Below, piece by piece: positions 4,991-64,000 of a stretch of 64,000 nucleotides of DNA; position 1 is the first letter of the stretch, and each line of letters begins with the position of its first letter. A program made the translations under genes and the position numbers. Under the pieces are notes generated by a model. The model was not told the DNA's origin and searched no databases. It was given only the letters and a program-made list of their open reading frames with translations. Source of the stretch: Phyllobates terribilis (lineage: Eukaryota); assembly GCF_046119375.1 (NCBI RefSeq), contig NW_027362763.1, forward strand, positions 541,074,001 through 541,138,000. The letters are read 5' to 3'.

Positions 4991-4991
4991 A

Positions 4992-33780: not shown

Positions 33781-33825
33781 TCCAAGTTCAAGCATTTTGA
33801 AATGGTTCTTGGTAATCACTCTAGA

Positions 33826-35760: not shown

Positions 35761-35764
35761 ACTG

Positions 35765-36140: not shown

Positions 36141-37047
36141 AGTAAAAAAAGAACCATAGTGTGTCCGGGAACTTTCCCATACACTTTTCTTAGCCAGGAC
36201 TGCTTTCTGGCAGGGTTGGACAGTCCCACCAGGGAATACTCGGATGGGCCCTGGCTTCTCCATCAGGAGAGTTCATGATAGCGCAAACTTTGCAGCAGCT
36301 ATGGGGCTCTTGAGTAGAGATGAGCGTTGTTCTACTCGAACTGTTCGCCAATCTCAAATTCGAGCTGTTTTGGGCGGTGTTCGAGCCGTTCGGCAAACAC
36401 GAACGATTTGAGAAAAATTCGGCTGTTCGAGGTTATGTTCGATAACTGTTTGTGCACCAAAATCATAACTGGATTTTTTCTCAGTAATGATGAAAATTAA
36501 TGTTAATACGCAGTTTGAGTGTACAGCATGGTGGGGGGAGGGGCGGGGGATGGATCTCTGCATGGAATAATGAAGATCTCCATTTTTTTTTCTCTTTCCC
36601 GCATTTACAGTGGGGAGGTGCAATCTGTCAGCCTATCAGCAGCGCACACACGGAGCGAAGTGCTTTTTTTCACACAAGCAAGGGCATGTGTCATTGGCAG
36701 TGTATGTCACATGTCCTTGCCCTATAAGACCAAGCCATTTTCCCCGTCGCCACCATTTTCTCACTGCTGCAGCTGCGTGTTAGACGGCACCGCTGTTGCT
36801 GTGTGCGCTATACCTTGTTAATTTCAAGCCAATTTTCGCACAAATGTACAGATAGCTTGGGAGTAGGGAATAGTTGTGATTGCAGTCCTTTTAAGGACTA
36901 GGTTACAGCATTTCCTACGACTTTTATCAGGCAGGTCTGTGCTCTTAAATAGATAGGTTGTGGGAGTAAAGACTAATTGTAATTGGAGTCCTTTTCAGGA
37001 CTAGGTTACATCAGTTCCTATCAGTTTTTGCCAGGCAGGTCTGTGCC

Positions 37048-37470
37048 TGTTAGAACCTTGCTGTTAGGTTTTTTTTTCCTTTGCTGGTCACATGACCTTG
37101 TTGGCCTATTTAATCCTGCTCCGCCCTTCTGGCTTTGCTGGACTTCATTGTATATCTACTTTCTAGCTAGCCTGTGCTCTGTATCTAACTCTGTTAGTTT
37201 GCTTGGTCTACGGACCTCTAGGTTCTATCTATTTTGTTTGTTCGTCTGTCTGCTACTATTTCTGTTAGGAGGTGTCCCATATTCCTCCCAGTCCTTAGTA
37301 CTTGTAAGGATTCCCTCCCCAAATCTATAGGTCTCCGTACAGACTAGATTAGGACTTTAGCAGGTCTGATCGCAGGATCAGGTTCCCTGTTACATCGTAG
37401 GGATTCAGCTGAGTCTTATAGTAGGGACAGATCTCCTCTCTTTCCTTAGCTTTGGTAGCAGAACATAACA
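37048..37470 (+). repeat. 5' LTR of G3
   Basis: TGTTAG...CATAACA; TATA-like TATTTAA at 37107. Confidence 0.95.
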
Positions 37471-37472
37471 GT

Positions 37473-37481
37473 AAGTCCAGC
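37473..37481 (+). promoter_or_regulatory. Putative self-priming site of G3
   Basis: AAGTCCAGC is complementary to GCTGGACTT at 37137-37145, 30 nt downstream of the TATA-like box. Confidence 0.6.
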
Positions 37482-37520
37482 CTGTAAATTCTCTAAGGAA
37501 AGATTTTTTTTTGTTCCATC

Positions 37521-40500
37521 ATGGTGTCGGTTCAGGATTTGGCTAAACACCTGCAGGGACTCTCTCTGGAAGTGGCCGAGCTCCGTCAGCACGTGAGTAA
37601 CTGTCCTGGAGCATATTTCTTGGAGCCTAAGGTATGTTTGCCGGATTTATTTTTTGGTGAACATCGAGAATTTTTTTCATTTAAAAATGCTTGCTTATTG
37701 TATTTTCGTTTGAGACCCAAGTCCTCTGGGGATGAATCCCAGCGCGTAGGGTTCATAATGTCACTTTTGCGCAAAGAGCCTCAGGAGTGGGCCTTTTCTT
37801 TGCAACCTAGTGATACATGCTTCAGATCAGTGGATAGTTTTTTTTCTGCTTTAGGACTTTTATATGATGATCCTGACCGTGTGGCATCAGCTGAGACTGA
37901 GTTGAGACGTTTAAAACAAGGATCAGGTAATATGGAAAAATATTGTACACATTTTCGTCGTTGGTCCACTCAAACAGGGTGGAACGATTCTGCTCTGAAA
38001 AGTCTATTTCTTGCTGGGCTCAGTGAAAAGGTTAAAGACCTGCTAATTGCTTATCCTACACCTGAGGATTTGCAACAGGCTATGCAATTAGCTATACGGG
38101 TGGACAGAAGACTGCGTGCTAGGGTTAATGAGAGCAAATCCTCTGCTATGTCAGTTTCTGGTTATGATAATGTGTGTACTAACAGTGGTGAACCGATGGA
38201 GATTGGATCGGTGGCACCTCGCTCTCAAGAAAAACACCGTCGTTTTTCAGAAGGCTTGTGTTTCTATTGCGGGAAATCTGGTCATTTGATTAAAGGCTGT
38301 GAGCTTCGTATGAAGAAAGAAAAAAAAATGGTCAGTCACGCCCGTATTGCCTGTTTAAATTCCAAGGGTATATTTTTAGCTGCTTCCACGATTGCTCAGG
38401 AAAAATTAATGGAATTTCGGGTGTTTGTTGATTGCGGGTCTACACTGAATGTTATTGATGGGGGATTCGTGGAAAAACTCAATTTAAAACCTGAACCTTT
38501 ATCATCCCCCATTGCTGTGGTTTCTGTGGATGGCTCCCCTTTGAAGAATATTACTCTCAAGGTCAGTGAATTTCCTCTCACTATTAATGGTGTTCACCAT
38601 GAGAAATTGGATTTGGTAGTGTTGAATAACTTGCCTTCTCCAGTAATATTGGGTTTGCCCTGGTTAAAATTTCACAATCCTGTACTGGATTGGTCTACCA
38701 GTGAAATTAAATCCTGGAGCCATAAATGTTATGACAAGTGTTGTAACGGGCGTATTGCAGCTTTGGATAGGGGAGAATTACCTGTACCTATTCAGGATTT
38801 TTGGAGAGTTTTTTCTGAGAAAGAATCGCAGGTTTTGCCTCCCCATAGAGACTATGATTGTTCTATTGAATTTGTCCCTGGAGCGACTCTTCCTAAAAGT
38901 CGTTTATTTAACCTTACTATTCCTGAGAGGAAGGCTTTGGAGGAATACATACAGACAAGTTTGGCCGCCGGTCACATTAGGCCCTCTAAGTCTCCTGTGG
39001 CGGTTGGATTTTTTTTTGTAAAAAAAAAGGACGGCGGTTTACGTCCTTGTCTGGATTTTCGTGAGATTAACAAAATTACGGTACGCAATCCTTACCCACT
39101 GCCATTGATTCCTGATCTGTTTAACCAGTTATTGGGGGCCAAGTGGTTCTCTAAAATTGACCTTAAGGGGGCATACAATCTGTTGCGCATGAAGGAGGGT
39201 GATGAATGGAAGACTGCTTTTAACACTCCTGTGGGTCATTTTGAGAATCTGGTTATGCCTTTTGGTCTTACTAATGCTCCTGCATTTTTTCAGAATCTGA
39301 TTAATGACATCCTTAGACCTTTGATCGGTAAAAATGTGGTTGTGTATTTGGATGACATTTTGATTTATTCGCCAGATCTGGAGTCTCATTGGCGGAGCGT
39401 GCGTGAGGTATTACAGTTATTAATGGACAATTCGCTTTTTGCTAAGCTGGAGAAATGTGAGTTCGCTGTACAGAGAATTAGTTTTTTGGGCTACATTATC
39501 TCCAGCAAAGGTTTTGAGATGGATCCGGTTAAGGTTCAGGCTGTGCAGGAATGGCCTAGGCCTATTGGTTTGAAATCAATACAGAGGTTTTTGGGTTTCG
39601 CCAATTACTATAGAAAATTCATAAAAAATTTTTCTAGTATTGTCAAACCTCTGACTGATCTCACCAGGAAAGGTGCTGATGCGGTTCAGTGGTCTTCTGA
39701 GGCCATTGAAGCTTTTGTGTATCTCAAGGAGAGGTTCACCTCTGCTCCCATCCTTATGCAGCCTGATGTTACTAGGCCGTTTTTGGTTGAGGTTGATGCT
39801 TCCTCTGTGGGGGTTGGCGCAGTATTGTCTCAGGATAACGGGGATGGATTACATCCCTGTGCATTTTTTTCAAAAAAATTTTCGGAGACTGAATTGAATT
39901 ACGATATTGGTAATCGGGAATTATTGGCTATTAAACTCGCATTTGAACACTGGCGCCACTTCTTGGAAGGTGCGGAATTTCCCGTTCAGGTTCTTACGGA
40001 TCATAAAAATCTGATATATCTTGACGCTGCCAAGCGCCTGAATGCCCGTCAGGCTAGGTGGGCACTGTTTTTCTCGCGGTTTAATTTCTCCGTTACTTAC
40101 ATCCCTGGTACTAAGAATGTTAAGGCGGATGCCTTGTCTCGCAGTTTTTCTCCCATAGTCGGTGCTGAGAAAGAGGAAAACATTTTACAAGAAGGTGTTG
40201 TGATAGCTGCTTTAGACTCCGTTTTGGAAGATGAGATTCTTAAAGCTCAGGAGAATGCCCCATCTAACACTCCTCATGGGAGGTTGTTTGTGCCTGGGAC
40301 CTTTAGGAGAGATTTGTTTGTTGAGTGTCACGAATCTCGGTTGGCAGGTCATCCCGGAATCTCTGAGACCAAGAGACTGGTGGGTCGCAGTTTTTGGTGG
40401 CCTGGATGGCAGAAGGAAGTCATTAAGTGGGTGCGCCAATGTACTATATGTGCTAGATCTAAGTCCTCACATACTCCTGCTGCGGGGTTGCTTTGTCCTT

Positions 40501-41588
40501 TGGAGGTCCCCAGTGCTCCTTGGACACATTTGGCTATGGACTTTATAACTGACCTTCCCCCCTCTGAGGGTTTTACTGTCATCTGGGTGGTCGTGGACCG
40601 TTTTAGCAAGATGTGTCACTTGGTTCCCTTCGTCAAACTGCCCTGCGCTAAAACTCTCGCTAAGGCCTTTGTCAAGGAAATTGTCAGACTTCATGGCGTT
40701 CCTACTGACATTGTTTCTGATAGGGGTCCTCAGTTCGTGGCTCGTTTTTGGCGTGCCTTTTGTGACAGGTTGGGAATTCATTTGTCGTTTTCGTCCGGAT
40801 ATCATCCTGAATCTAATGGCCAGACAGAAAGGAAAAACCAGGATGTTGAGCAGTTCTTGCGTTGTTTTGTGGCAGACAATCAAGAGGGGTGGTCTGAGTT
40901 TCTGCCACTTGCTGAATTTGCTCTGAACAATCATACATCTTCTTCTGCTGGTTGTTCGCCTTTTTTTTGTTGTTCTGGGAGACATCCGTCGTTTGGGTCG
41001 TTCTCCAAGTTGGGATCTGCCGTGCCTGAGGAGGAGAATTTTTCCGGTGATTTGGAAAGAGTTTGGACGGATGTGCGTGGTAATCTTCAGGAGGCCAACA
41101 GAAAATCTAAAGACTACTTTGATAGGAAACGACAGGAGGTTTTGTTCGCTGTTGGTGACATGGTTTGGTTGTCCTCTAGGAATCTGCGGTTGAGGATTCC
41201 TTCTAAGAAATTGGGTCCCAAGTTTGTAGGGCCCTTTAAGGTGCTTCAGGTTGTCAACCAATCTGCTGTTAGGTTGGAGGTTCCTACCTCCTGGAGAATT
41301 AATCCGGTCTTTCATGTCTCTCTGTTAAAAAAAGCTGTTGTGTCGGATGGTGACGCCTCTGCCTCTGTTCCTCCGGTGGTGGAGGACGGGGAATATGAAA
41401 TTTCTCGCATCCTTGACTCTAGACGGTATAGAGGTAGTTTGCAGTATCTTGTGGCCTGGAAAGGTTTCGGACCCGAGGATAACTCTTGGGTGTGGTCAGA
41501 TGATGTTTCCGCGTCCAGACTTATCAGAGCGTTTCACAGGAGATTTCCTGATAAGCCTGGTCCTAGGGGATCCGGAGGATCCTCTTAG
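37521..41588 (+). CDS. gag-pol: Single-ORF Gag-Pol polyprotein (capsid, CCHC, protease, RT, RNase H, integrase, chromodomain)
   Basis: 1355-aa ORF with CFYCGKSGHLIKGC, FVDCGS, YLDD, HHCC, DDE and chromodomain YLVAWKGFGPEDNSW. Confidence 0.95.
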   Translation: MVSVQDLAKHLQGLSLEVAELRQHVSNCPGAYFLEPKVCLPDLFFGEHREFFSFKNACLLYFRLRPKSSGDESQRVGFIMSLLRKEPQEWAFSLQPSDTCFRSVDSFFSALGLLYDDPDRVASAETELRRLKQGSGNMEKYCTHFRRWSTQTGWNDSALKSLFLAGLSEKVKDLLIAYPTPEDLQQAMQLAIRVDRRLRARVNESKSSAMSVSGYDNVCTNSGEPMEIGSVAPRSQEKHRRFSEGLCFYCGKSGHLIKGCELRMKKEKKMVSHARIACLNSKGIFLAASTIAQEKLMEFRVFVDCGSTLNVIDGGFVEKLNLKPEPLSSPIAVVSVDGSPLKNITLKVSEFPLTINGVHHEKLDLVVLNNLPSPVILGLPWLKFHNPVLDWSTSEIKSWSHKCYDKCCNGRIAALDRGELPVPIQDFWRVFSEKESQVLPPHRDYDCSIEFVPGATLPKSRLFNLTIPERKALEEYIQTSLAAGHIRPSKSPVAVGFFFVKKKDGGLRPCLDFREINKITVRNPYPLPLIPDLFNQLLGAKWFSKIDLKGAYNLLRMKEGDEWKTAFNTPVGHFENLVMPFGLTNAPAFFQNLINDILRPLIGKNVVVYLDDILIYSPDLESHWRSVREVLQLLMDNSLFAKLEKCEFAVQRISFLGYIISSKGFEMDPVKVQAVQEWPRPIGLKSIQRFLGFANYYRKFIKNFSSIVKPLTDLTRKGADAVQWSSEAIEAFVYLKERFTSAPILMQPDVTRPFLVEVDASSVGVGAVLSQDNGDGLHPCAFFSKKFSETELNYDIGNRELLAIKLAFEHWRHFLEGAEFPVQVLTDHKNLIYLDAAKRLNARQARWALFFSRFNFSVTYIPGTKNVKADALSRSFSPIVGAEKEENILQEGVVIAALDSVLEDEILKAQENAPSNTPHGRLFVPGTFRRDLFVECHESRLAGHPGISETKRLVGRSFWWPGWQKEVIKWVRQCTICARSKSSHTPAAGLLCPLEVPSAPWTHLAMDFITDLPPSEGFTVIWVVVDRFSKMCHLVPFVKLPCAKTLAKAFVKEIVRLHGVPTDIVSDRGPQFVARFWRAFCDRLGIHLSFSSGYHPESNGQTERKNQDVEQFLRCFVADNQEGWSEFLPLAEFALNNHTSSSAGCSPFFCCSGRHPSFGSFSKLGSAVPEEENFSGDLERVWTDVRGNLQEANRKSKDYFDRKRQEVLFAVGDMVWLSSRNLRLRIPSKKLGPKFVGPFKVLQVVNQSAVRLEVPTSWRINPVFHVSLLKKAVVSDGDASASVPPVVEDGEYEISRILDSRRYRGSLQYLVAWKGFGPEDNSWVWSDDVSASRLIRAFHRRFPDKPGPRGSGGSS

Positions 41589-41600
41589 AAGGGGGGGTAC
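41587..41600 (+). promoter_or_regulatory. Polypurine tract of G3
   Basis: AGAAGGGGGGGTAC before the 3' LTR, identical to the G1 PPT. Confidence 0.9.
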
Positions 41601-42023
41601 TGTTAGAACCTTGCTGTTAGGTTTTTTTTTCCTTTGCTGGTCACATGACCTTGTTGGCCTATTTAATCCTGCTCCGCCCTTCTGGCTTTGCTGGACTTCA
41701 TTGTATATCTACTTTCTAGCTAGCCTGTGCTCTGTATCTAACTCTGTTAGTTTGCTTGGTCTACGGACCTCTAGGTTCTATCTATTTTGTTTGTTCGTCT
41801 GTCTGCTACTATTTCTGTTAGGAGGTGTCCCATATTCCTCCCAGTCCTTAGTACTTGTAAGGATTCCCTCCCCAAATCTATAGGTCTCCGTACAGACTAG
41901 ATTAGGACTTTAGCAGGTCTGATCGCAGGATCAGGTTCCCTGTTACATCGTAGGGATTCAGCTGAGTCTTATAGTAGGGACAGATCTCCTCTCTTTCCTT
42001 AGCTTTGGTAGCAGAACATAACA
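41601..42023 (+). repeat. 3' LTR of G3
   Basis: Direct repeat of 37048-37470. Confidence 0.95.
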
Positions 42024-42214
42024 GTGCCAGTGCTGTGCAAGTTTTTTTCACAGCATTTGGCTGAATCTAGCAAAGCTAATCCTTTTTGGACTATTGCAGA
42101 GTGCGTTAGTCAGTGGAGTAGCCTATCTGTGTTGCAAGATATACCACCTGTGTATAGAATACCAATTTTTTTACTGCACCTAGTGAAGTAAAATCTTTTG
42201 GGCATAGCATCATT

Positions 42215-44901
42215 CTATTAGTCCATCTATACTGACCTCCATCAGGTTGCAAATTGAATATAATTTTTTTCTGCATCTAGCTCTGAAAAAATATTTGGCC
42301 TTCTAGCAGTGTGTGGGACTTTCTCTATTAGTCCATCTATACTGACCTCCATCAGGTTGCAAACTGAATATAATTTTTTTCTGCATCTAGCTCTGAAAAT
42401 ATATTTGGGCTTCTAGCTGTGTGTGGGACTTGTTCTATTACTCCATCTATACTGACCTCCATCAGGTTGCAAATTGAATATAATTTTTTTTCTGCATTTA
42501 GCTCTGAAAAAATATTGGGCTTCTAGCTGTGTGTGGGACTTGTTGTATTAGTCCATCTATACTGACCTCCATCAGGTTGCAAACTGAATATATTTTTTTC
42601 TGCATCTACCTCTGAAAAAATATTGGGCTTCTAGCTGTGTGTGGGACTTGTTCTATTAATCCATCTATACAGACTTCCATCAGGTTGCAAACTGAATATA
42701 ATTTTTTTCTGCATCTAGCTCTGAAAAAATATTTGGCCTTCTAGCAGTGTGTGGGACTTTCTCTATTAGTCCATCTATACTGACCTCCATCAGGTTGCAA
42801 ACTGAATATATTTTTTTCTGCATCTACCTCTGAAAAAATATTGGGCTTCTAGCTGTGTGTGGGACTTGTACTATTAATCCATCTATACAGACCTCCATCA
42901 GGTTGCAAATTGAATATAATTTTTTTTCTGCATTTAGCTCTGAAAAAATATTGGGCTTCTAGCTGTGTGTGGGACTTGTTGTATTAGACCATCTATACTG
43001 ACCTCCATCAGGTTGCAAACTGAATATATTTTTTTCTGCATCGACCTCTGAAAAAATATTGGGCTTCTAGCTGTGTGTGGGACTTGTACTATTAATCCAT
43101 CTATACAGACCTCCATCAGGTTGCAAATTGAATATAATTTTTTTTCTGCATTTAGCTCTGAAAAAATATTGGGCTTCTAGCTGTGTGTGGGACTTGTTGT
43201 ATTAGTCCATCTATACTGACCTCCATCAGGTTGCAAACTGAATATATTTTTTTCTGCATCTACCTCTGAAAAAATATTGGGCTTCTAGCTGTGTGTGGGA
43301 CTTGTTCTATTAATCCATCTATACAGACTTCCATCAGGTTGCAAACTGAATATAATTTTTTTCTGCATCTAGCTCTGAAAAAATATTTGGCCTTCTAGCA
43401 GTGTGTGGGACTTTCTCTATTAGTCCATCTATACTGACCTCCATCAGGTTGCAAACTGAATATAATTTTTTTCTGCATCTAGCTCTGAAAATATATTTGG
43501 CCTTCTAGCAGTGTGTGGGACTTTCTCTATTAGTCCATCTATACTGACCTCCATCAGGTTGCAAATTGAATATAATTTTTTTCTGCATCTAGCCCTGAAA
43601 AAATATTGGGCTTCTAGCTGTGTGTGGGACTTGTTGTATTAGTCCATCTATACTGACCTCCATCAGGTTGCAAACTGAATATATTTTTTTCTGCATCTAC
43701 CTCTGAAAAAATATTGGGCTTCTAGCTGTGTGTGGGACTTGTACTATTAATCCATCTATACAGACCTCCATCAGGTTGCAAACTGAATATAATTTTTTTC
43801 TGCATCTAGCTCTGAAAAAATATTTGGCCTTCTAGCAGTGTGTGGGACTTTCTCGATTAGTCCATCTATACTGACCTCCATCACGTTGCAAACTGAATAT
43901 AATTTTTTTCTGCATCTAGCTCTGAAAAAATATTTGGCCTTCTAGCAGTGTGTGGGACTTTCTCTATTAGTCCATCTATACTGACCTCCATCAGGTTGCA
44001 AACTGAATATAATTTTTTTCTGCATCTAGCTCTGAAAAAATGTTTGGCCTTCTAGCAGTGTGTGGGACTTTCTCTATTAGTCCATCTATACTGACCTCCA
44101 TCAGGTTGCAAATTAAAAATAATTTTTATCTGCATCTAGCTCTGAAAAAATATTTGGGCTTCTAGCTGTGTGTGGGACTAGTTCTATTACTCCATCTATA
44201 CTGACCTCCATCAGGTTGCAAATTGAATATAATTTTGTCTGCATCTAGCTCTGAAAAAATATTGGGCTTCTAGCTGTGTGTGGGACTTGTTGTATTAGTC
44301 CATCTATACTGACCTCCATCAGGTTGCAAACTGAATATATTTTTTTCTGCATCTACCTCTGAAAAAATATTGGGCTTCTAGCTGTGTGTGGGACTTGTTC
44401 TATTAATCCATCTATACAGACCTCCATCAGGTTGCAAACTGAATATAATTTTTTTCTGCATCTAGCTCTGAAAAAATATTTGGCCTTCTAGCAGTGTGTG
44501 GGACTTTCTCTATTAGTCCATCTATACTGACCTCCATCAGGTTGCAAATTAAAAATAATTTTTATCTGCATCTACCTCTGAAAAAATATTTGGGCTTCTA
44601 GCTGTGTGTGGGACTTGTTCTATTACTCCATCTATACTGACCTCCATCAGGTTGCAAATTGAATATAATTTTTTTCTGCATCTAGCTCTGAAAAAATATT
44701 GGGCTCCTAGCTGTGTGTGGGACTTGTTGTATTAGTCCATCTATACTGACCTCCATCAGGTTGCAAACTGAATATATTTTTTTCTGCATCTACCTCTGAA
44801 AAAATATTGGACTTCTAGCTGTGTGTGGGACTTGTTCTATTAGTCCATCTATACTGACCTCCATCAGGTTGCAAATTGAATATAATTTTTTTCTGCATCT
44901 A
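42215..44901. repeat. 108-110-bp satellite array in hAT A (about 24.6 units)
   Basis: Unit starts at 42215, 42325, 42435, 42545, 42653...; consensus CTATTAGTCCATCTATACTGACCTCCATCAGGTTGCAAA...CTGCATCTAGCTCTGAAAAAATATT...GTGTGTGGGACTT. Confidence 0.95.
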
Positions 44902-45017
44902 ACCCAGCCAATAGTTTTGGCCTAATACCACAGTTTGGCCACTCAGCTCTGCTCGGTTCCCATCCATTGTTTTTTTGTGCAAACAACTCCAGAGTTGTGA
45001 ATTAGTTAACCACCAAA

Positions 45018-47903
45018 ATGAGTGGAAAAAGGCCTGCTGCTGGTGGAAAGGGGAATAGGCGTGTTGGGAAGGGGAAAAAAGGTTGTGTCCGTGGGGTAGG
45101 TGTTAAAGCAACAGTAACATCTGCAGAAGAAAGACCATCTTCCAGCCAAACTAAAATGTCTTCTTCTTTTAGCGGACAATGTGATAAGATCCCTTTCTTA
45201 CGGCCACGCCAATCGCTACAAATTCCAGATGAGGCACAAAAACAGCAGGTGCTTCAACGGATATCAAGTGCTCCTTTAAGTGGGCTCTCCTCCACATCAA
45301 CTTCAACATCACAAATACTCCAGTCCTCAAAGGTGTCACCCCAATCGCACTTGCTTCCTCACAGCTCCCAAATCTCCAGCTGCCCGTCTGAGTATGAGGT
45401 AGAACAGATGGTTGAGTCTGCAGAGCTGTTTACTCATACTATAGCCTGGGAATCAGAGGTCGACTCCAGCGCTTCTGTGAATCCAGACGAGCAAATGATC
45501 TTCACTGATGCCCAGAATCTTTATGAGTCGGATCCAGGACCAGACGCAGAAGGTTCTGACCATAATGTAGACCCTCATTCCCAAACTGTAACTCCTGTTG
45601 GTGGAGACAATGAGGAAGACGATGATGAGACTCAAATACCTGATTGGAGCGACAACTTTAGTTTTTTGTCAGGGCAGGAACAGGTTGGCTCTGAGGACGA
45701 CGGGTGTGATAACGCACAGGGTGATGATGATGAGGTTGGAGATCCCACTTACTGTCAACCCACAGTCAGCCAAGAGATGAGGTCAGCAGAGGAGGTGGAG
45801 GAAGATGCTAGTGACGACGAGGTCAGGTTGCGCCTTCCTGGACAGAGACGTAGTACTGGAAGCACGACAACAACTGCATCCTCAAACACAACTCTGCCTC
45901 TCACCACAAGTCGTGGTGGCTCTTCATGTCGCATGGGTGCTAAGCCTTGCATAGCCTGGGCATTTTTTCAGATCGATAAAGATGACCCAACTCGTGTTAT
46001 CTGTAACATTTGTCAGCAAAAGCTAAGTAGAGGCCAAAATATACATAGTTTGAGTACTTCATGCATGAATCGGCACATGGACATGAAGCATAAGTTGCAG
46101 TGGGAAGCTCAGTGTGCTACAATGCGGCCTAGCCGGCCGGGCCAACCACCGTCTGCCATATCTTGTGCATCCGCGGCCTCTTCATCCTCTGTGACTGGGG
46201 GGACAGCAGTCACACCTGTTTTGGGGCGCAGACCTGCCACCTCTTTACCCGCAACAGCCAGCGTGATTGGCAGGTCATCATTTTCTTTGGAGGTGGTAAC
46301 ACCAGCTGGTGTTGAGCGCTGTCCGACATCGATAGCACCACCTTTGGATCAAGGCAACCTAACATGTCCGCCTGCATCTTCCTCACAGACCGGCAGTTTG
46401 CCGGGGACACCCTTATCAACCCCGTCTAAGCACAATAGCCAGCCCTCGGTCCCTCAGATGTGGACAAGTAAAAGACCATTTCCTCCTAGCCATGAGAAAG
46501 CTAAGAGGTTGAATTTCACCATCTGCAAGCTCTTGGCTACAGAAATGCTGCCTTTCCGCCTGGTGGACACAGAGGATTTTCGAGACCTTATGTCTGTCGC
46601 AGTGCCCCAGTTCCAGATGCCCAGTCGGCACTACTTCTCAAAGAAAGGTGTGCCTGCGCTCCACCAGCATGTCGCACACAACATCACCGCTTCTTTGAGA
46701 AACTCTGTGTGTGACAGGGTGCATTTCACCACAGACACTTGGACGAGTAGGCATGCACAGGGGCGTTACATGTCGCTGACTGGGCACTGGGTAACTATGG
46801 TGACAGCAGGACAAGGGGCTGCTGTCCAAGTCTTGCCGTCCCCACGAGTTGTGCGTCAATCCTCTTTATGTCAAAGTTCCTCCACTGCTTCTGCCTCCTC
46901 AACCTCCTCTCGGTCTTCCACCTGCACCCAAAGCCTGTCTGGTCATGCCACAAGCTTTCTAACTGCGCAGAAGGGATCCTGCACACCTCCTTACTATGCT
47001 GGCAGTAGGGCTCAACGTCATCAGGCGGTTTTTACTTTGAAATGTCTGGGAAATGTGAGTCACACAGCTGAGAAGTTGTGGTCAGCTCTGGAGAACCAAT
47101 TTCATGAATGGTTGTCTCCACTGGACCTGAAACCAGGGAAGGCCGTGTGCGACAATGCTGCAAACCTGGGTGCGGCCCTTCGCCGGGGCAATGTCACACA
47201 CGTGCCTTGTATGGCTCACGTGTTGAACCTGGTTGTCCAGCAATTTTTAGCCCACTATCCCAGACTAGATGGCCTTCTGCAGAGGGCACGGTTGCTGTGT
47301 GCTCACTTCCGCCGTTCGCATCCCGCAGCTCAGCGACTTACATCTCTACAGAAGTCGTTGGGCCTGCCACTTCACCGGCTAAAATGCGATGTGCCTACCC
47401 GGTGGAATTCAACTCTGCACATTTTGCAGCGACTGTGGCAGCACCGACAAGCCCTGGTGCAAAACGTTCTGACGTATAGCCTGGGCCAACTAGATCCAGA
47501 CGTGGGGCAAATCACGCTGGAGGAGTGGTCTCAGATCAGGGACCTATGCACCCTTCTGCACAGTTTTGAAATGGCGATGAAGATGTTTAGTGCTGACGAT
47601 GCCATTATCAGCATGACTATTCCGGTGATTTACATGCTGGAGCACATGTTAAACAGAATTCGGAGTCAGGTGGTGGCATAAGAGGAGGTGGAGGAAGTAG
47701 AGGAGGAGGAGTTGTATGCGGAAGGGCTAACATCTGCAAGGTCCAGACGGTCGGCAGCACCAAGGCGGCAGGCATGTGAGGGTGGGGGAGATGGTTTTAC
47801 CAGGGCGCATGGTAGCAGCCAAACTAGTGAGGAAGGTGCAGGAGCCCAGGAAGAAGTGGAGGACGAACTGATGGAAGACTCATCAGATGAGGGAGACCTT
47901 GAT
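45018..47903 (+). pseudogene. hAT A transposase, 5' part (887 codons open, then TAA at 47679-81, then split by copy B)
   Basis: BED finger WAFF..C..C..H...H, FTTDTW, VCDN, CMAH, TRWNS; CAA in copy B corresponds to TAA here. Confidence 0.93.
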
Positions 47904-50077: not shown

Positions 50078-50193
50078 ACCCAGCCAATAGTTTTGGCCTA
50101 TTACCACAGTTTGGCCACTCAGCTCTGCTCGGTTCCCATCCATTGTTTTTTTGTGCAAACAACTCCAGAGTTGTGAATTAGTTAACCACCAAA

Positions 50194-53893: not shown

Positions 53894-53934
53894 AAGCTTG
53901 ATGATTGGTTAAAATCACCCTACCAACCGTTTTA

Positions 53935-54205
53935 AGCTTTCAAATTACTAATCATGTTTATCTGTATCTTGGCTGGAAAATAATTTGGGCTTTGTAGCAG
54001 TGTGCAGCACTGAATCTATTAGGCCATCTATAATAAGCTCCACCAGATTTAAAATTACTAATCATGTTTATCTGTATCTTGACTGGAAAATAATTTGGGC
54101 TTTGTAGCAGTGTGCAGCACTGATCCTATTAGGCCATCTATACTAAAGCTTCACCAGATGTAAAATTAATAATAATTTTTAGCTGCATCTAGCCCGGAAA
54201 ATAAT
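53935..54205. repeat. Diverged 110-bp units downstream of the transposase (copy B)
   Basis: Period of 110 (53941/54051); shares CTATTAG.CCATCTATA and TAGCAGTGTG with the upstream satellite. Also at 59347-59617 in A. Confidence 0.8.
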
Positions 54206-54329
54206 TTTGGGGCTCCGAGATGCGCAAGACACATAAGTGCCTTCTTGCTGCACTACCTGCAGCATGACCCTCATATTGTCAGAATTCGAAGTCATCATGA
54301 CTACTGGGTTGCCACACTCTTAGATCCCC

Positions 54330-55703
54330 CAAACTTTTCGATCAACCTTTTCATTTTAATAAAGACCAAAAAAATGGTCATTTTTGAAATTATAAGCATT
54401 AGCAGGTTGTTAGAAACTGAAATCAAACAGTTTTCAACTCAAAACTTTATTCTAGGTGATGTTACATTTTCACATAGGACCCCTTGTTCGAAAGGAGCTT
54501 CTGAACTCTCTCGTCCATTGAATTTGTCAGGTTTTGGATGGTTTCTGCTTCAATTGTTTTGCATGAGGACAGAATACCCTCCCAGAGCTGTTGCTTAAAT
54601 GTGAACTGCCTCCCGCCATCATAGACACTTCTTTTAATGATGCTCCAAAGGTTCTGAATGGGGTACAGGTCAGGGGAGCATGGGGGTCACACCATAAGTT
54701 TGTCCCCTTTTATGCCCATATCAGCCAGAGATGCAGATGTTTTATGTGCAGCATGAGATGGTGCATTATCATGCAGAAAAATGATCTTGCTGTGAAATAC
54801 ACGGTTCTTCTTCTTGAACCATGGCAGGAAGTGCTGTTTGAGAAAATCCACATACATTATGGAGTTCATCTTTAGCGCCTTCAGGGATCCTAAAGGGGCC
54901 GACAATCTCTCTCCCCATGATTCCAGCCCAAAACATTACTCCACCTCCTCCTTGTTGGCGCTGTAGCCGTGTTTGCGTGGGGTGTCCATCAACCAGCCAT
55001 CCTCCACTCCATCCATCTGGACCATCGAGCGCTGCACGGCACTCATCCGTGAACAAAACAGTTTTGAAATCAGTCTTCATGTAATGTTTGGCCCACTGGA
55101 GCCGTATCTGCTTGTGTGAAGTGGATAGAGGAGGTCGACAGGATGGCGTATGCACAGCTGCAAACCTCTGAAGGACCCTGCATCTTGTTGTTCGGGGGAC
55201 GTTGGAGGCACAAGCAGCTTCAAAAACTTGTCTGCTGCTATGACAAGGCTTTTTTGCCGCTGCTCTTTCAACCTGACGTAATTGCCTGTAGGAAAGAGTC
55301 CTCAATTTGCCCTTATCAGCACGCACACGTGTGTACAGTGAATCAGCTACATACTTCTTGATTGCCAAGACACTTCATCCTGATCATCGCACAATGTTGA
55401 TTGTAGTCATGCCTTGACCTAAACACTCCACAATTTTTTGCTTCTCAGCAGCCGACACATCCTTTTTCTTTCCCATTTTGGCAGAAAATGTAGGCTGCTT
55501 AATAATGTGAGACAACCTTCTTAAGTAGTCTTGCCTTTCATTGGACACACCTGCCAAACTAATTAGCACAGGTGTCTGCAATTGCTTACAGTGATATAAA
55601 GAGCCCTGACACACATCACCATCAATGAGTTTAACTGACAAACAAACAAATTCTTCCCTTATCACTCCTAAACACTTTTTGCATAATAATTTGGAACGCA
55701 GTG
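54330..55703 (-). mobile_element. Tc1 element carried in hAT B (3' TIR lost; transposase pseudogene 54462-55476)
   Basis: 5' TIR CACTGCGTTCCAAATTATTATGC at a TA (55704-05); MGKKKDVSAAEK, FTDECR, LHDNAPSH, PCSPDL.PI.NLW; flanked by pieces of a partial hAT transposase duplicate (54209-54329, 55704-55774). Confidence 0.9.
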
Positions 55704-55774
55704 TACATGTGCTTTTCCACAAAACACCAGTGGTTCACGTAGTGAATCTTACAGTTCTAACTTGCCAACCGTGG

Positions 55775-57600
55775 TCTGTATGGAGTTGTTCAATAAAGGG
55801 CCCAAAATTAAGATAACATAGATGGGAGAGGTCTCTATGAATAGGAATTCCTAAGTATTTGATACCCTGTGAGGGCCAGGCAAAGGGAAAGTTGGACTGG
55901 ATGGAATCCTATATGGATTTGGGGAGGGAGACATCAAGGGCCTCAGACTTCGCTGCATTGATTTTAAAATTTGACCATGTAACAAAGTGATCTATTTCAG
56001 CCATAACAGAATGGATGGATATATGTGATTGAGTGATATATACTAGGACATCATCAGCAAATAGAGAGCACTTGTACTCGGTGCCTCCCACCTCAATCCA
56101 CCTAATATTGGGGTTATGGCGAATTGATGAGAGCAGGTGCTCCATCACTAGGATGTATAAGAGAGGGGACAGAGGACATCCCTGCCTTGTCCCATTGGTG
56201 ATTGTGAAAGGTGATAAAAATGTTCTGATGCACCCCCTGGGCCTTGGGACACCCGGAGCCGGACCCTTTTTGGTGGATGCTGGTGGTTGTAGTCTTCGTG
56301 GCGGCGACCCGGTTCCGTGGCTCAGGGTGGTCAAACCAGTGGCGGAACTATTTATGTGGTTTTGATGTTTAAATGTCCGACTACGCCACCCGTGGATTGT
56401 GGTCAGAGTGAACCGCCGATGCAGGGCAGACCGCTGAGGCTGGTGTTGTGGGTGCAGCAGAGCGCAGCATAACTCCCCAAGGGAGGAGTATAGCCTCAGG
56501 GCAGTGTATGCGGAGGATGGGGGTGATGGTGCAGGGCAGCAGCAGTAACGACACGGAGTCAGTGATGCAGTCCAGGGCCTTTACTCACAGTTCTTATTAC
56601 CCAGACCACGTCTGCAGGTAACGGCTGCCCACGTCGTACTGTGCTCACCAGGTGAGGGGCTCAGACAACTCCCAGATAACTTTGGAGCGCTTCACAGGAC
56701 CCCCTTTGTGTGTCCTTTGTCTGGCCTTTCTTACCAACCCTTCTGTCCGGCTGCCTCGGGCCTCCTCTTGGTAAACTTGGCGCCAGTTTCCCTGACCCTA
56801 TGTGGTGCCTTCCTAGCGGGTGTAGCGAGGGGCTGCGCCACATAAAATGTCACAGCCTCCGGTTTCTAGCTGAGGGTCATTTCCTGCCTCCACTAGTTTC
56901 GGGGACCGGTCTCCCCCTTTGGCCTGACCCCTCCACGCAGGTGGATTCGGGCGTGCGGTGGCGACTCGCCCGTCCTCACCCCTGGGATCCCTTCATTCCT
57001 CGTTCCTGGAGCCTTCTCCGCTCCTCTTCCTTCCTTCTCCCTCTTCCAGGCCTGGGCCTCTGTTACTAGGCCTGCCTCCGGAGCAGAGCTCATGCAGAGC
57101 CCCTGCTCCCTGCCACTTCTGCTCAGACTTCTCTGCACTGAACTAAGATGGTGCCCACCTTTTTTACTCCCTTCTCAATGCACCCAGGAACTGCTTCCTC
57201 CCTGCTCCTGCACTACAGGGTTCCCCTTCCTCAGTGTTCCCTCCCCCCACTCCAGCCAGGGACAGGGACTGTCGTGCCCATCTCAGAGGCATATTGGTCG
57301 CCCTGCCCCACGGCAATGTGGTGTAATGCATGCAGGTGTCGGGTCCTGATCCACACTCCATCCTTACCTGAGAGTGAGATATCACACCTCTGGGTGAGGT
57401 GCAATACCTCTGTAGCAACTGAGCCCTCAGGGTGCTACAGCTCCATTTATCTTCAGCCTAGGTGACGTATTGTGATACAGGGCCGTGATTTTGGCTATAA
57501 AAGGGTCCCCTAGACCCCTACCCCAAGCTTTTTAAGAGAATCATATATGGCGTGCCAGGAGACTCTATGGAATGCTTTCTCAGCATCCAACGAGAGTATC
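55775..57600 (-). pseudogene. Internal L1 ORF2 RT fragment (about 610 bp) split by a solo LTR (copy B)
   Basis: ILSLDAEKAF.RVSW at 57599-57555; after removing the LTR it reads INGT..SPFTITNGTRQGCPLSPLLY, LFADD, KYLGI. Confidence 0.88.
56226..57439. mobile_element. Solo LTR (1214 bp) within the L1 fragment (copy B)
   Basis: TG...CA ends (TGATGCACCC...GGGTGCTACA); 4-bp TSD GTTC/GCTC (perfect GTTC in copy A). Confidence 0.8.
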
Positions 57601-57710
57601 TAATTACAAATTTTTAACTGCATCTAGCCCAGGAAATACTTTGTGCCTAGTAGCAGTGTCTGCTAGTCAGCGGATTATCCCGGCTGTTAAGCAAGCTACA
57701 CCACCTGTAG

Positions 57711-57976
57711 TTTAGACACTTAATTTTTTCAAAGGAAATGCTTCGGGACCATGGGATACTCAGTGAAGAGCATCAGGAGGCACCCCAAGGCATAGGGGCT
57801 GGGACTGGCAGTAGGATGCCTTGCGGTGGACAGCCGAGCTCGATCCTTATAAAAGCTTTTTAACTGTAGCAGCTTTAGTGGACGCTACTGGAGCTGGAAT
57901 TACGCGGCTGCTGGCATGAGACTTGCCCTCCAATAGATCCTTGTAAATGGATTTAAAGTGTATTCATTCAAATTAG
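57711..57976 (-). rRNA. Diverged internal 18S rRNA fragment (non-functional) carried in hAT B
   Basis: Minus strand reads TTGGAGGGCAAGTCT..TGCCAGCAGCCGCG-TAATTCCAGCTCCA...AAAG.TGCT.CAGTTAAAAAGCT...TTTGAAAAAATTA, collinear with the universal SSU 530-loop and downstream V4 region (compared from recalled vertebrate 18S). Confidence 0.88.
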
Positions 57977-58489
57977 AGAGACAATTTAAATTAAAAAGCT
58001 TAGAGCTGCCTCCACCACAGGGGGGCTCGCTCGACCCACCAGCGGACAGGCACCAGTATTGGGAGAGGGGGGCTGGCCATCAGGGTTCACCGCGGCTCTG
58101 ACACAAACCCGGCGACACGGAGGTGGCACGGGCAGGAGCGGACTGGCCGTGTCGGCTTCTCACTTTTTGGATTTTAGAAGGGCATGACATGCCTATATCT
58201 GTGTCTCCCCCTCCTTTTACTCCTCCACCTCTTTTATTTTCGCATGACTATATGTACTTGTCACTTTTCCATGTGTTAGTTATGTCTTCTGAGCAGTTTG
58301 TCAGCTTTTGGACACCTTTGAAGGTGTTTTCTATGTGTTTCTATGTGTTTTTGTTTGCCTGCCATTGGTTTTAACGGTGTTCGAAGGTGTTCGACGAACA
58401 GTTCGACGAACAGTTCGGCGAACACACGGGTGTTCGACGAACCGAACCAAACTCGAACACAACGGGGGTGGCTCAACACTAACCTTGAT

Positions 58490-59305
58490 CACATTTCTAT
58501 TGTGTGAGGTTGGGGGGAGAGGACAGAGGAAGGAAGCATGATTGTTACCTCGCCACCAACACAACAGGGACTTGGTGCTCCTGGATGCGCAACACACATG
58601 AGTGCCTTCTTGCTGCACTACCTGCAACATGACCCTCGAATTGGGAGAATTAGAAATAATCCTGACTACTGGGTTGCCACACTGTTAGATCCCCGGTACA
58701 AAAGTAAATTTGCAGAAATTATTCCTGACATAGAAAGGGATGCACGCATGCAGGAGTATCAGCAGAGACTGTTGCAGAATCTTACATGTGCTTTTCCACA
58801 AAACACCAGTGGTGCACGTAGTGAATCTCACAGTTCCAACTTGCCAACCGTGGGACCGTCAAGTGTTCAGCACTCAAACCATAACAGAACCACAGTATCT
58901 GCTGGTAACATCAATTTTGCGCAATCATTTCACCACTTTTTTAGCCCATCCTTTGCAAGGCCACAGGAGACAAGAAGTCTGACACATAGTCAACGCCTAG
59001 AGACGATGGTACAGGAGTATCTCCAAGTAAACATTGAAGCCATGACTGTGTCACTGGACCCTTGCTCTTTTTGGGCTTCCAATCTGGATAAATGGCCGGA
59101 GCTAGCCACTTACGCCTTGGAGATCTTGTCATGCCCCGCAGCCAGCGTTCTGTCTGAACGTGTGTTCATCACTGCTGGTGGTGTGCTGACAGATAAGCGC
59201 ACGCGGCTCTCCACTGATAATGTAGACAGACTCACGTTCATAAAGATGAACAAATCATGGATACGAAACGACTTTTCTACCCATGTGTCATCCTGGGGAG
59301 AGTAA
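58490..59305 (+). pseudogene. hAT A transposase, 3' part
   Basis: 255-aa ORF nearly identical to the B C-terminus; 2886+816 bp = 1234 codons, so the ancestral protein was 1233 aa. Confidence 0.92.
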
Positions 59306-59740
59306 AAGATGGATGATTGGTTAAAATCACCCTACCAACCATTTTAAGCTTTCAAATTACTAATCATGTTTATCTGTATCTTGGCTGGAAAATAATTTGG
59401 GCTTTGTAGCAGTGTGCAGCACTGATTCTATTAGGCCATCTATAATAAGCTCCACCAGATTTAAAATTACTAATCATGTTTATCTGTATCTTGGCTGGAA
59501 AATAATTTGGGCTTTGTAGCAGTGTGCAGCACTGATCCTATTAGGCCATCTATACTAAGCTCCACCAGATTTAAAATTAATAATAATTTTTAGCTGCATC
59601 TAGCCCGGAAAATAATTTTGGGGCTCCGAGATGCGCAAGACACATAAGTGCCTTCTTGCTGCACTACCTGCAACATGACCCTCATATTGTCAGAATTCGA
59701 AGTAATCATGACTACTGGGTTGCCACACTCTTAGGTCCGC

Positions 59741-61114
59741 CAAACTTTTCGATCAACCTTTTCATTTTAATAAAGACCAAAAAAATGGTCATTTTTGAAA
59801 TTATAAGCATTAGCAGGTTATTAGAAACTGAAATCAAACAGTTTTCAACTCAAAACTTTATTCTAGGTGATGTTACATTTTCACATAGGACCCCTTGTTC
59901 GAAAGGAGCTTCTGAACTCTCTCGTCCATTGAATTTGTCAGGTTTTGGATGGTTTCTGCTTCAATTGTTTTGCATGAGGACAGAATACCCTCCCAGAGCT
60001 GTTGCTTAGATGTGAACTGCCTCCCGCCATCATAGACACTCCTTTTGATGATGCTCCAGAGGTTCTGAATGGGGTAGAGGTCAGGGGAGCATGGGGGTCA
60101 CACCATAAGTTTGTCCCCTTTTATGCCCATATCAGCCAGAGATGCAGATGTTTTATGTGCAGCATGAGATGGTGCATTATCATGCAAAAAAATGATCTTG
60201 CTGTGAAATACACGTTTCTTCTTCTTGAACCATGGCAGGAAGTGCTGTTTGAGAAAATCCACATACATTATGTAGTTCATCTTTAGCGCCTTCAGGGATC
60301 CTAAAGGGGCCGACAATCTCTCTCCCCATTATTCCAGTCCAAAACATTACTCCACCTCCTCCTTGTTGGCGCTGTAGCCGTGTTTGCGTGGGGTGTCCAT
60401 CAACCAGCCATCCTCCACTCCATGCATCTGGACCATCGAGCGCTGCACGGCACTCATCCGTGAACAAAACAGTTTTGAAATCAGTCTTCATGTAATGTTT
60501 GGCCCACTGGAGCCGTTTCTGCTTGTGTGAAGTGGATAGAGGAGGTTGACAGGATGGCGTATGCACAGCTGCAAACCTCTGAAGGACCCTGCATCTTGTT
60601 GTTCGGGGGACGTTGGAGGCACCAGCAGCTTCAAAAACTTGTCTGCTGCTATGACAAGGCTTTTTTGCCGCTGCTCTTTTAACCTGACGTAATTGCTTGT
60701 AGGAAAGAGTCCTCAATTTGCCCTTATCAGCACGCACACGTGTGTACTGTGAATCAGCTACATACTTCTTGATTTCCAAGACACTTCATCCTGATCATCG
60801 CACAATGTTGATTGTAGTCATGCCTTGACCTAAACACTCCACAATTTGTTGCTTCTCAGCAGCCGACACATCCTTTTTCTTTCCCATTTTGGCAGAAAAT
60901 GTAGGCTGCTTAATAATGTGAGACAGCCTTCTTAAGTAGTCTTGCCTTTCATTGGACACACCTGCCAAACTAATTAGCACAGGTGTCTGCAATTGCTTAC
61001 AGTGATATAAAGAGCCCTGACACACATCACCATCAATGAGTTTAACTGACAAACAAACAAATTCTTCTCTTATCACTCCTAAACACTTTTTGCATAATAA
61101 TTTGGAACACAGTG
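59741..61114 (-). mobile_element. Tc1 element carried in hAT A (transposase pseudogene 59873-60887)
   Basis: Copy of 54330-55703 at offset 5411. Confidence 0.9.
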
Positions 61115-61185
61115 TACATGTGCTTTTCCACAAAACACCAGTGGTTCACGTAGTGAATCTTACAGTTCTAACTTGCCAACCGTGG

Positions 61186-63011
61186 TCTGTATGGAGTTGT
61201 TCAATAAAGGGCCCAAAATTAAGATAACATAGATGGGAGAGGTCTCTATGAATAGGAATTCCTAAGTATTTGATACCCTGTGAGGGCCAGGCAAAGGGAA
61301 AGTTGGACTGGATGGAATCCTGTATGGATTTGGGGAGGGAGACATCGAGGGCCTCAGACTTCGCTGCATTGATTTTAAAATTTGACCATGTAACAAAGGG
61401 ATCTATTTCAGCCATAACAGCATGGATGGATATATGTGATTGAGTGATATATACTAGGACATCATCAGCAAATAGAGAGCAATTGTACTCGGTGCCTCCC
61501 ACCTCAATCCACCTAATATTGGGGTTATGGCGAATTGATGAGAGCAGGTGCTCCGTCACTAGGATGTATAAGAGAGGGGACAGAGAACATCCCTGCCTTG
61601 TCCCATTGGTGATTGTGAAAGGTGATGAAAATGTTCTGACGTGCCCCCTGGGCCTTGGGACACCCGGAGCCGGACCCTTTTTGGTGGATGCTGGTGGTTG
61701 TAGTCTTCGTGGCGGCAACCTGGTTCCGTGGCTCAGGGCGGTCAAACCAGTGGCGGAACTATTTATGTGGTTTTGATGTTTAAATGTCTGACTACGCCAC
61801 CCGTGGATTGCGGTCAGAGTGAACCGCCGCTCCAGGGCAGACCGCTGAGGCTGGTGTTGTGGGTGCAGCAGAGCGTAGCATAACTCCCCACGGGAGGAGT
61901 ATAGCCTCAGGGCAGTGTATGCGGAGGATGGGGGTGATGGTGCAGGGCAGCAGCAGTAACGACACGGAGTCAGTGATGCAGTCCAGGGCCTTTACTCACA
62001 GTTCTTATTATCCAGACCACGTCTGCAGGTAACGGCTGCCCACGTCGTACTGTGCTCACCAGGTGAGTGGCTCAGACAACTCCCAGATAACTTTGGAGCG
62101 CTTCACAGGACCCCCTTTGTGTGTCCTTTGTCTGGCCTTTCTTACCAACCCTTCTGTCCGGCTGCCTCGGGCCTCCTCTTGGTAAACTTGGCGCCAGTTT
62201 CCCTGACCCTATGTGGTGCCTTCCTAGCGGGTGTAGCGAGGGGCTGCGCCACATAAAATGTCACAGCCTCCGGTTTCTAGCTGAGGGTCGTTTCCTGCCT
62301 CCACTAGTTTCGGGGACCGGTCTCCCCCTTTGGCCTGACCCCTCCACGCAGGTGGATTCGGGCGTGCGGTGGCGACTCGCCCGTCCGCACCCCTGGGATC
62401 CCTTCATTCCTCGTTCCTGGAGCCTTCTCCGCTCCTCTTCCTTCCTTCTCCCTCTTCCAGGCCTGGGCCTCTGTTACTAGGCCCGCCTCCGGAGCAGAGC
62501 TCATGCAGAGCCCCTGCTCCCTGCCACTTCTGCTCAGACTTCTCTGCACTGAACTTAGATGGTGCCCACGTTTTATACTCCCTTCTCAATGCACCCAGGA
62601 ACTGCTTCCTCCCTGCTCCTGCACTACAGGGTTCCCCTTCCTCAGTGTTCCCTCCCCCCACTCCAGCCAGGGACAGGGACTGTCGTGCCCATCTCAGGGG
62701 CATATTGGTCGCCCTGCCCCACGGCAATGTGGTGTAATGCATGCAGGTGTCGGGTCCTGATCCACACTCCATTCTTACCTGAGAGTGAGATATCACACCT
62801 CTGGGTGAGGTGCAATACCTCTGTAGCAACCGAGCCCTCAGGGTAATACAGTTCCATTTATCTTCAGCCTAGGTGAAGTATTGCGATACAGGGCCGTGAT
62901 TTTGGCTATAAAAGGGTCCCCTAGACCCCTACCCCAAGCTTTTTAAGAGAATCATATATGGCGTGCCAGGAGACTCTATGGAATGCTTTATCAGCATCCA
63001 ACGAGAGTATC
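61186..63011 (-). pseudogene. L1 RT fragment split by a solo LTR (copy A)
   Basis: ORF 61146-61745 contains GTRQGC.LSPLLY, LFADD, KYLGI. Confidence 0.88.
61637..62850. mobile_element. Solo LTR (1214 bp), copy A
   Basis: TG...CA ends; perfect 4-bp TSD GTTC at 61633-36 and 62851-54. Confidence 0.82.
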
Positions 63012-63121
63012 TAATTACAAATTTTAAACTGCATCTAGCCCAGGAAATACTTTGTGCCTAGTAGCAGTGTCTGCTAGTCAGCGGATTATCCCGGCTGTTA
63101 AGCAAGCTACACCACCTGTAG

Positions 63122-63386
63122 TTTTGACACTTAATTTTTTCAAAGGAAATAATTCGGGACCACGGGATACTCACTGAAGAGCATCAGGAGGCACCCCAAG
63201 GCATAGGGGCTGGGACTGGCAGTAGGATGCCTTGCGGTGGACAGCCGAGCTCGATCCTTATAAAAGCTTTTTAACTGCAGCAGCTTTAGTGGACGCTACT
63301 GGAGCTGGAATTACGCGGCTGCTGGCATGAGACTTGCCCTCCAATAGATCCTTGTAAATGGATTTAAAGTGTATTCATTCAAATTA
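63122..63386 (-). rRNA. Diverged internal 18S rRNA fragment (non-functional) carried in hAT A
   Basis: Copy of 57711-57976 with the same SSU signature motifs. Confidence 0.88.
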
Positions 63387-64000
63387 GAGAGACAATTTAA
63401 ATTAAAAAGTTTAGAGCTGCCTCCACCACAGGGGGGCTCGCTCGACCCACCAGCGGACAGGCACCAGTATTGGGAGAGGGGGGTTGGCCGTCAGGGTTCA
63501 CCACGGCTCTGGCACAAACCCGGCGACGCGGAGGTGGCACGGCCAGGAGCGGACTGAACGTGTCGGCTTCTCACTTTTTGGATTTTAGAAGGGCATGACA
63601 TGCCTATATCTGTGTCTCCCCCTCCTTTTACTCCTCCACCTCTTTTCTTTTCGCATGACTATATGTACTTGTCACTTTTACATGTGTTAGTTGTGTCTTC
63701 AGAGCAGTTTGTCAGCTTTTGGATACCTTTTGAAGGTGTTTTCTATGTGTTTCTATGTGTTTTTGTTTGCCTGCCATTGGTTTTAACGGTGTTCAAAGGT
63801 GTTCGACGAACAGTTCGACGAACAGTTCGGCGAACACATGGGTGTTCGATGAACCGAACCGAACTCGAACACTACGGGGGTGGCTCAACACTACTCTTGA
63901 GCAGGGGAGAAAGGTGAGCCCTTAGAATTAAATCCTCTGGTGGGCCCAATGTTTTTCAGTTTGAAACTGCTTCTCAGTGGGAGTTGGATTTCGTCACAGC

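Follow-up and report, generated by a model that had tools for sequence, protein, structure and literature searches.

The window analyzed here is a stretch of 64,000 nucleotides from the frog Phyllobates terribilis (NCBI RefSeq assembly GCF_046119375.1, contig NW_027362763.1, positions 541,074,001 to 541,138,000 of the forward strand), in which one large hAT transposon, B, lies inside another, A. Both are very probably copies of a young, autonomous hAT family of about 10–13 kb that has been amplified together with a passive cargo of transposon debris. Positions given below are those of the window unless a contig is named.

Structure of the nested elements

Self-BLAST and a read-out of the junctions place A at 36315–63893, interrupted by B at 47904–58481; the left (36315–47903) and right (58490–63893) pieces of A and the whole of B lie on the plus strand, and the insertion point is inside the transposase gene of A. 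Each element is flanked by its own 8-bp target duplication: positions 36307–36314 are identical to 63894–63901 for A, and 47896–47903 to 58482–58489 for B. The 8-mer targeted by B is present once and unbroken in B's own transposase gene (53070–53077), which represents the empty site. The terminal inverted repeats (TIRs) are 11 bp long, with 9 of 11 bases matching between the two ends of each element; those of B lie at 47904–47914 and 58471–58481, and the right TIR of A at 63883–63893. B is a complete copy of 10,578 bp. The net length of A is 12,012 bp, that is, 11,589 plus 5,404 bp less a gypsy element of 4,976 bp and its 5-bp duplication. The difference of 1,434 bp corresponds to 13 units of an internal satellite, counted by Tandem Repeats Finder (TRF) as 24.6 units in A and 11.6 in B. 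With the satellite excluded, the two elements diverge by 1.76%. A preliminary description of the window, made from the sequence alone, had given both elements TIRs and 8-bp duplications, the same two lengths, 13 extra satellite units in A and a divergence of a few percent by eye; its anatomy is exact to the base, and the TRF counts and measured divergence bear out the rest.

The left part of A comprises the 11-bp TIR, a subterminal region, the gypsy insert, the satellite and the 5' part of the transposase gene. The gypsy insert (37048–42023, plus strand) is a Ty3/gypsy chromodomain retrotransposon with identical long terminal repeats (LTRs) and a 5-bp duplication; it is very young and holds a single open frame of 1363 amino acids (aa). 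The satellite, with a unit of about 110 bp, spans 42213–44901 on the plus strand in A and 48822–50077 on the plus strand in B. The transposase gene of A (45018–47903, plus strand) is cut by B after about codon 960, has a stop at codon 888 and contains the BED finger and the first two catalytic Asp residues; its C-terminal part extends to 59305 in the right piece, followed by a 3' satellite (59350–59618, TRF), a solo LTR (61637–62850) and an 18S core (63295–63417). In B the transposase gene lies at 50192–53893 on the plus strand (start approximate) and carries private indels of 1 bp as well as a stop at codon 522, so the genes of both elements are broken. Clusters of a short pentamer occur in both subterminal regions of B (9 and 11 per 140–160 bp, against an internal density of 0.075 per 150 bp).

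The preliminary description further held that the transposon had inserted into its own transposase gene. B is instead a sibling of A and not its daughter, and landed in a sibling copy, because it is closer to its nearest sampled relative (0.64%) than to A (1.76%) and lacks the gypsy insert present in A.

Abundance and mobility of the family

Exact probes were counted throughout the 10.57-Gb assembly, with reversed probes as controls, which gave zero matches. The left-end and right-end probes found 49,409 and 62,391 matches, respectively, the junction probes for two alleles of a Tc1-type insert 14,392 and 29,276, and the solo-LTR junction probe in the version of A 57,207. The LTR-junction probe taken from B found 47 matches only, owing to a private base in B. 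The cargo half of B, used as a query, returned 6,925 candidates, and all 36 that were scored were at least 99% identical over nearly the full 4.1 kb. When 29 of the other 35 scored matches were followed to both ends, 28 of these 29 close copies showed both ends with equal 8-bp flanks. A second sample, which avoided bias toward B, comprised 20 paired copies without B's junction allele, taken in coordinate order after the first two pairs, each longer than 19 kb, had been skipped. The same cargo was found in 17 of the 20, one had an internal deletion and two were another mosaic; equal flanks were present in 17 of 20. The preliminary description had proposed a hAT family of more than 10 kb that moves whole with its cargo, and this proposal understated what the 57,207 junction copies and the 28 close copies with duplications of their own now show.

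The ends were paired within the first 25.9 Mb of contig C1, where 63 of 73 left ends had a right partner. The distance between paired ends ranged from 7.8 to 38.6 kb (median 11.15 kb), and none of the 63 pairs was shorter than 7.8 kb, so no class of short derivatives (MITEs, for miniature inverted-repeat transposable elements) was seen in this region. An exact partner was missing for 10 left and 37 right ends, and an exact right end was located at about 1 kb from 74 of 92 LTR junctions. The genome share of the family is 4.5% if only copies with both ends exact are counted, 5.7–6.0% from the raw count of LTR junctions and 6.6–7.2% after correction for probe mismatches. The LTR-bearing form thus amounts to 57,000–69,000 copies, or about 4.5–7% of the assembly. 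In DNA run X1, from the same organism and possibly from the source sample, summed depth was flat across transposase and cargo, depth being distinct from copy number. In runs X14 and X9 (from the organisms labeled E and B) all 30 bins were covered at a depth of 9–139 and about 99% identity, a pattern that trace DNA of the organism labeled A would also produce; neither is therefore counted as a further host.

The number of satellite units per copy ranged from 7 to 40, with no fewer than 7 in any of the 41 copies counted. The target duplications, read by eye, have T at position 2 and A at position 7 in 22 of 24 cases; this pattern would fit the Ac family of hAT elements, of which we take such a consensus to be a trait.

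Transposase and autonomy

An open frame of 1233 aa is present in 9 of 21 B-like copies and in 2 of 20 position-ordered copies, the latter containing three more frames of 1226–1227 aa; the intact transposase whose search the preliminary description had suggested is therefore at hand, and these fractions imply thousands of intact transposase genes. Pfam identifies zf-BED (E 4e-10) and Dimer_Tnp_hAT (E 2e-14) in the protein. Comparison with the Hermes transposase (E 4e-19) brings the second Asp and the CxxH, Trp and Glu motifs into register, and the first catalytic Asp is placed by motif only. A search for a longer or fused form of the transposase gave two distant matches only.

Stops and frameshifts in the open reading frames (ORFs) of the family are nearly all private to single copies. 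The ratio of nonsynonymous to synonymous changes per site (pN/pS) is 1.09 for private non-CpG changes, against 0.43 and 0.58 for differences between lineages. Neutral private changes and constrained differences between lineages would be expected of a gene that is propagated by working masters alone and decays in the copies after insertion. The mean pairwise ORF distance of 0.74% corresponds to a few million years at 1–2 changes per billion sites per year, an uncalibrated estimate. Judged by its sequence, the family encodes its own transposase, with predicted enzymatic activity, and would therefore be autonomous and not of the Pack type.

Composition and history of the cargo

The region between the stop codon and the right end consists of a diverged satellite, a transposase remnant split by a Tc1-type element, a reverse transcriptase (RT) fragment split by a solo LTR, a satellite unit and an 18S rRNA piece. 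In B, the diverged satellite (53938–54207, plus strand) has 2.4 units by TRF. It is followed by a remnant of a sibling hAT transposase (aa 987–1030; 54197–54328, plus strand) with a DNA identity of 89% to B's gene and 93% to the lineage of the S2 mosaic described below; a second piece of the remnant (aa 1061–1083) lies at 55705–55773 on the plus strand. The Tc1-type element between them (54329–55703, minus strand) has one end intact and flanked by TA and has lost the other; its Pfam matches, HTH_Tnp_Tc3_2 (E 6.6e-4) and DDE_3 (E 3.6e-3), are both under the cut-off. The non-LTR RT fragment, which from its motifs we take to be L1-like, matches RVT_1 (E 2e-16) and lies on the minus strand, with its 3' piece at 55775–56225 and its 5' piece at 57440–57597. 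The solo LTR inside it (56226–57439, minus strand, about 1.2 kb) has TG...CA ends and a 4-bp duplication that is perfect in A, and its empty site occurs elsewhere; paired LTRs in copy L070 are 66% related to it. A single degenerate satellite unit (57599–57729, plus strand) is followed by a decayed 18S rRNA fragment (57671–58034, minus strand, Rfam envelope), which scores above the Rfam gathering threshold in both A and B. The Tc1, L1-like, LTR and 18S parts (54329–58034) are all antisense to the transposase, and read-through would yield antisense transcripts of each of them. Among the 28 non-transposase frames, Pfam recognized no fragment of host protein-coding DNA: 26 had no match and the others matched DDE_3 and RVT_1. 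The density of private mutations is similar on cargo and ORF, at 1.8–2.5 per kb per copy.

The empty site of the solo LTR has 3,896 matches genome-wide. Ten such places were examined at length, and five of them show both ends (four with equal flanks and one with one mismatch) at a size of 8.7–9.7 kb. Seven LTR-free copies are 2.9% apart, compared with a pairwise distance of 0.74% among LTR-bearing copies, and do not belong to the LTR-bearing clade (support 1.0). Since these older LTR-free copies survive with their own ends and duplications outside that clade, the LTR was inserted into an already mobile element, in a single event of which at least 57,207 copies were subsequently made. The ratio of LTR-bearing to LTR-free copies is about 15:1. 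Three further mosaics (L109, L110 and L111) share the L1 piece, the 18S piece and the right end and differ in their left parts; in all three, the transposase stop is followed immediately by a longer L1 piece, an arrangement suggesting that the acquisition of L1 and 18S preceded that of the Tc1 block.

Another mosaic, S2, has a length of 10.7 kb and combines the ends and satellite of the family with a fragment presumably derived from a tyrosine recombinase, judged by its motif, with a sibling transposase that is broken and inverted, and with a different solo LTR. Its junction probe has 2,319 matches; copies include L087 (G000:C1:16005324-16016022), L083 and the host of L012. S2 is non-autonomous and must have been mobilized in trans. 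Two single copies carry rearrangements. L084 (G000:C1:14325703-14333498) has a deletion of 2.3 kb that runs exactly from the transposase to its cargo remnant, a pattern such as homologous recombination would give, and joints resembling it occur at low depth in DNA run X1. In L003, whose outer flanks are equal, 2.6 kb comprising the transposase end and cargo are duplicated in tandem within the element.

Other elements in the window

A second hAT element of 7.8 kb occupies 27225–35027. It has its own 8-bp duplication, ends equal to the right TIR of the A/B family, a transposase 40% identical to that of the family, and tandem arrays of 203-, 66- and 30-bp units. Large hATs that contain satellites may be a general feature of the genome. 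The element splits a 370-bp satellite (24840–26638 and 35027–35762) derived from hAT transposase coding sequence, which matches aa 504–584. The remaining elements are a gypsy relative on the minus strand (178–5598) with LTRs 96.5% alike and a frame of 1130 aa, a broken gypsy element on the plus strand (6540–9514), a 30-bp minisatellite of 23 units (17061–17745) and short palindromic, MITE-like elements at 10505–10722, 15379–15556 and 17904–18221.

Discussion

The reading of A and B as copies of an autonomous family with passive cargo suggests the following course of events. The 1233-aa transposase, with its BED, DDE and dimerization domains, would cut at the 11-bp TIRs and insert the element with an 8-bp duplication, and copies would be gained through S-phase excision or sister-chromatid repair of the donor site, as in general hAT biology. 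A variable satellite and passive debris would have joined successive master copies, in an order that is conjectural before the LTR step, and the last, LTR-bearing master would then have expanded to its present 57,000–69,000 copies. At such a density, new copies would often land in siblings, as B did in A. The ragged remnant block may have originated from template switching, and the range in satellite units from slippage or unequal exchange.

Two alternative explanations concern the cargo. The extra DNA could be partly functional, either because the satellite or the length is needed in cis or because the captured solo LTR served as an enhancer in the germline and set off the last burst. The excess of LTR-bearing copies is as expected under this explanation, and so are the seven or more satellite units in every copy counted and the degenerate units near both ends. 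Moreover, the trans-mobilized S2 mosaic is also 10.7 kb long, yet no short derivative was found in the 63 pairs, and short derivatives often outnumber autonomous copies, as stated in part of PMC3942097. However, one lucky master explains the skewed count equally well, private mutations are about as frequent on the cargo as on the ORF, the sample of pairs is small, and L084, which lacks the Tc1 block, keeps its duplication and may have moved before or after the loss. We therefore consider a partial function unlikely. An extended form, in which the element needs the satellite or at least 8 kb, so that no MITEs arise, and in which the captured solo LTR switched on a burst of about 0.6–0.7 Gb, is likewise improbable; if true, a single composite cut-and-paste element would be among the main recent causes of genome gigantism, and some of the recent activity annotated in frogs for LTR, LINE and Tc1 elements would represent the passenger load of a hAT. 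The other explanation is the Pack type named in the preliminary description, with cargo captured from the host as one block and moved in trans. The block of remnant, Tc1 and remnant is ragged, as expected of one-step capture by template switching, and is 93–96% identical to another hAT lineage against 89–94% to the family's own gene; the 18S piece is host-derived and S2 is non-autonomous. Nevertheless, the main family has an intact transposase of its own, Pfam revealed no host coding fragment in the 28 frames, the LTR arrived later by insertion into an element that was already mobile, and in L109–L111 the longer L1 piece directly adjoins the transposase stop, so the Pack label is not retained and a Pack-type origin is very unlikely.

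The nesting could also reflect directed self-targeting, a local hop or mis-assembly of repeats. The same junction as in the window occurs at three other places in the assembly, other copies likewise lie within family members (L012 in an S2 copy, and L115), and the junctions are without read verification. One of the three sites, on contig C2, involves a different host copy; only one junction is shown there, since the 9 kb examined did not contain the other end of the guest with an equal duplication. Transposition of the A and B composite as a whole to C2 is unlikely, the C2 host being 98.4% identical to A and 98.7% to B. Against these possibilities, B is not the closest relative of A, and the clean duplications of both elements would not arise from a collapse. 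The right flank lies inside a young family member in one of 29 sampled copies, which fits a genome share of 4.5–7%. Random targeting by 60,000 insertions would place 1,350–2,100 of them in family members, including 450–700 in the transposase ORF. Directed, local or artefactual nesting is thus highly unlikely. Because so many cases are expected at random, the nesting is ordinary, needs no special mechanism and is a by-product of the abundance of the family.

Several points weigh against the autonomous family with passive cargo and the ordinary nesting of its copies. No read piece was found that bridges either nesting junction, the nesting being seen in the assembly only, and two of the other junctions (C7 and C221) look like one insertion assembled twice. 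Flanks were unequal in one of 29 close copies and three of 20 position-ordered copies. All counts come from one assembly and may include duplicated haplotype pieces, and the figures for size and pairing come from 25.9 Mb of one contig. The passivity of the cargo is read from its absence of open frames and its similar density of private mutations, and not from function. The pN/pS counts are small (25 versus 18 in the LTR-free comparison), with no correction for transition bias or test of significance, and 29 of the 49 aligned copies had been picked for their similarity to B, so that the mean divergence is lowered.

A single DNA transposon family accounting for 4.5–7% of a 10.57-Gb genome, in full-length 11-kb copies less than 1% apart, contradicts the view, put forward in a section of PMC6431247, that cut-and-paste efficiency falls above a cargo of about 6 kb, as well as the view that hobo-Activator elements enlarge frog genomes by way of many small insertions (PMC12822217, in part). 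Every copy adds LTR DNA (1.2 kb), L1-like DNA (0.6 kb) and Tc1 DNA (1.4 kb), so that an annotation built from fragments would probably assign about 180 Mb to bursts of elements that have not transposed by themselves. The transposase is also a candidate vector for large cargo.

Comparison with known systems

The family shares with the hAT superfamily (Ac/hobo/Hermes/Tol2 type) its short TIRs, which at 11 bp lie within the 10–25 bp of that superfamily, 8-bp duplications, BED finger, Hermes-like core with the DDE, CxxH and Trp motifs, and C-terminal dimerization domain, and these features place it among the hATs. It differs in size, with 10–13 kb compared with the 2.5–5 kb given for hATs in a portion of PMC3942097; the median of 11.15 kb lies outside that range, which is a typical and not a defining trait. 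Further differences are the transposase, a single-exon protein of 1233 aa compared with 612 aa in Hermes, and the presence of tens of thousands of full-length copies with no short derivatives seen among the paired ends. The frog 'ZBED4/ZBED6-like' hAT transposases have the same domain order. The best 44 protein matches have E values of at most 1e-78 and identities of 30–49% and, where named, come from frogs; the family itself was absent among the 7,999 protein candidates scored, in which matches of the full-length type reached at most about 49% identity. No description of the family was found in the literature; Repbase, Dfam and supplements lay outside this search, and a library entry may exist.

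Pack-MULEs, in the account given in part of PMC6431247, carry host gene fragments, lack a transposase and are mostly 1–2 kb long; the term 'hAT' does not occur in that text. The family resembles them in that foreign DNA between TIRs is moved by cut-and-paste, and its S2 mosaic was moved in trans. However, the main family appears autonomous, its cargo consists of transposon debris and an rRNA piece, and only S2 is non-autonomous as Pack elements are. FEDoR of Rana temporaria, in the excerpted description of PMC12054243, is about 3.5 kb long, with no ORF, 43 full copies described and short likenesses to hAT and mariner. Like the family, it is dispersed in a frog genome, is bounded by inverted ends and target duplications and contains tandem arrays, and by that partial description alone it is a smaller, non-coding analogue.

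Among other frogs, hATs account for 255 Mb in Oophaga pumilio, where the largest single families have 52–86 Mb (PMC6278860, in part), and for 3.91% in Dendrobates tinctorius (PMC11152451, in part); for Ranitomeya imitator, a part of PMC12822217 cites 1.1 Gb of hAT, read as many small insertions. Coding MULEs of maize and rice, as portrayed in PMC3903597, are similar to the family in being autonomous DNA transposons that collect nested retroelements. In those MULEs, nesting is linked to lower abundance according to the same source, whereas here the copy bearing an LTR remnant was amplified most.

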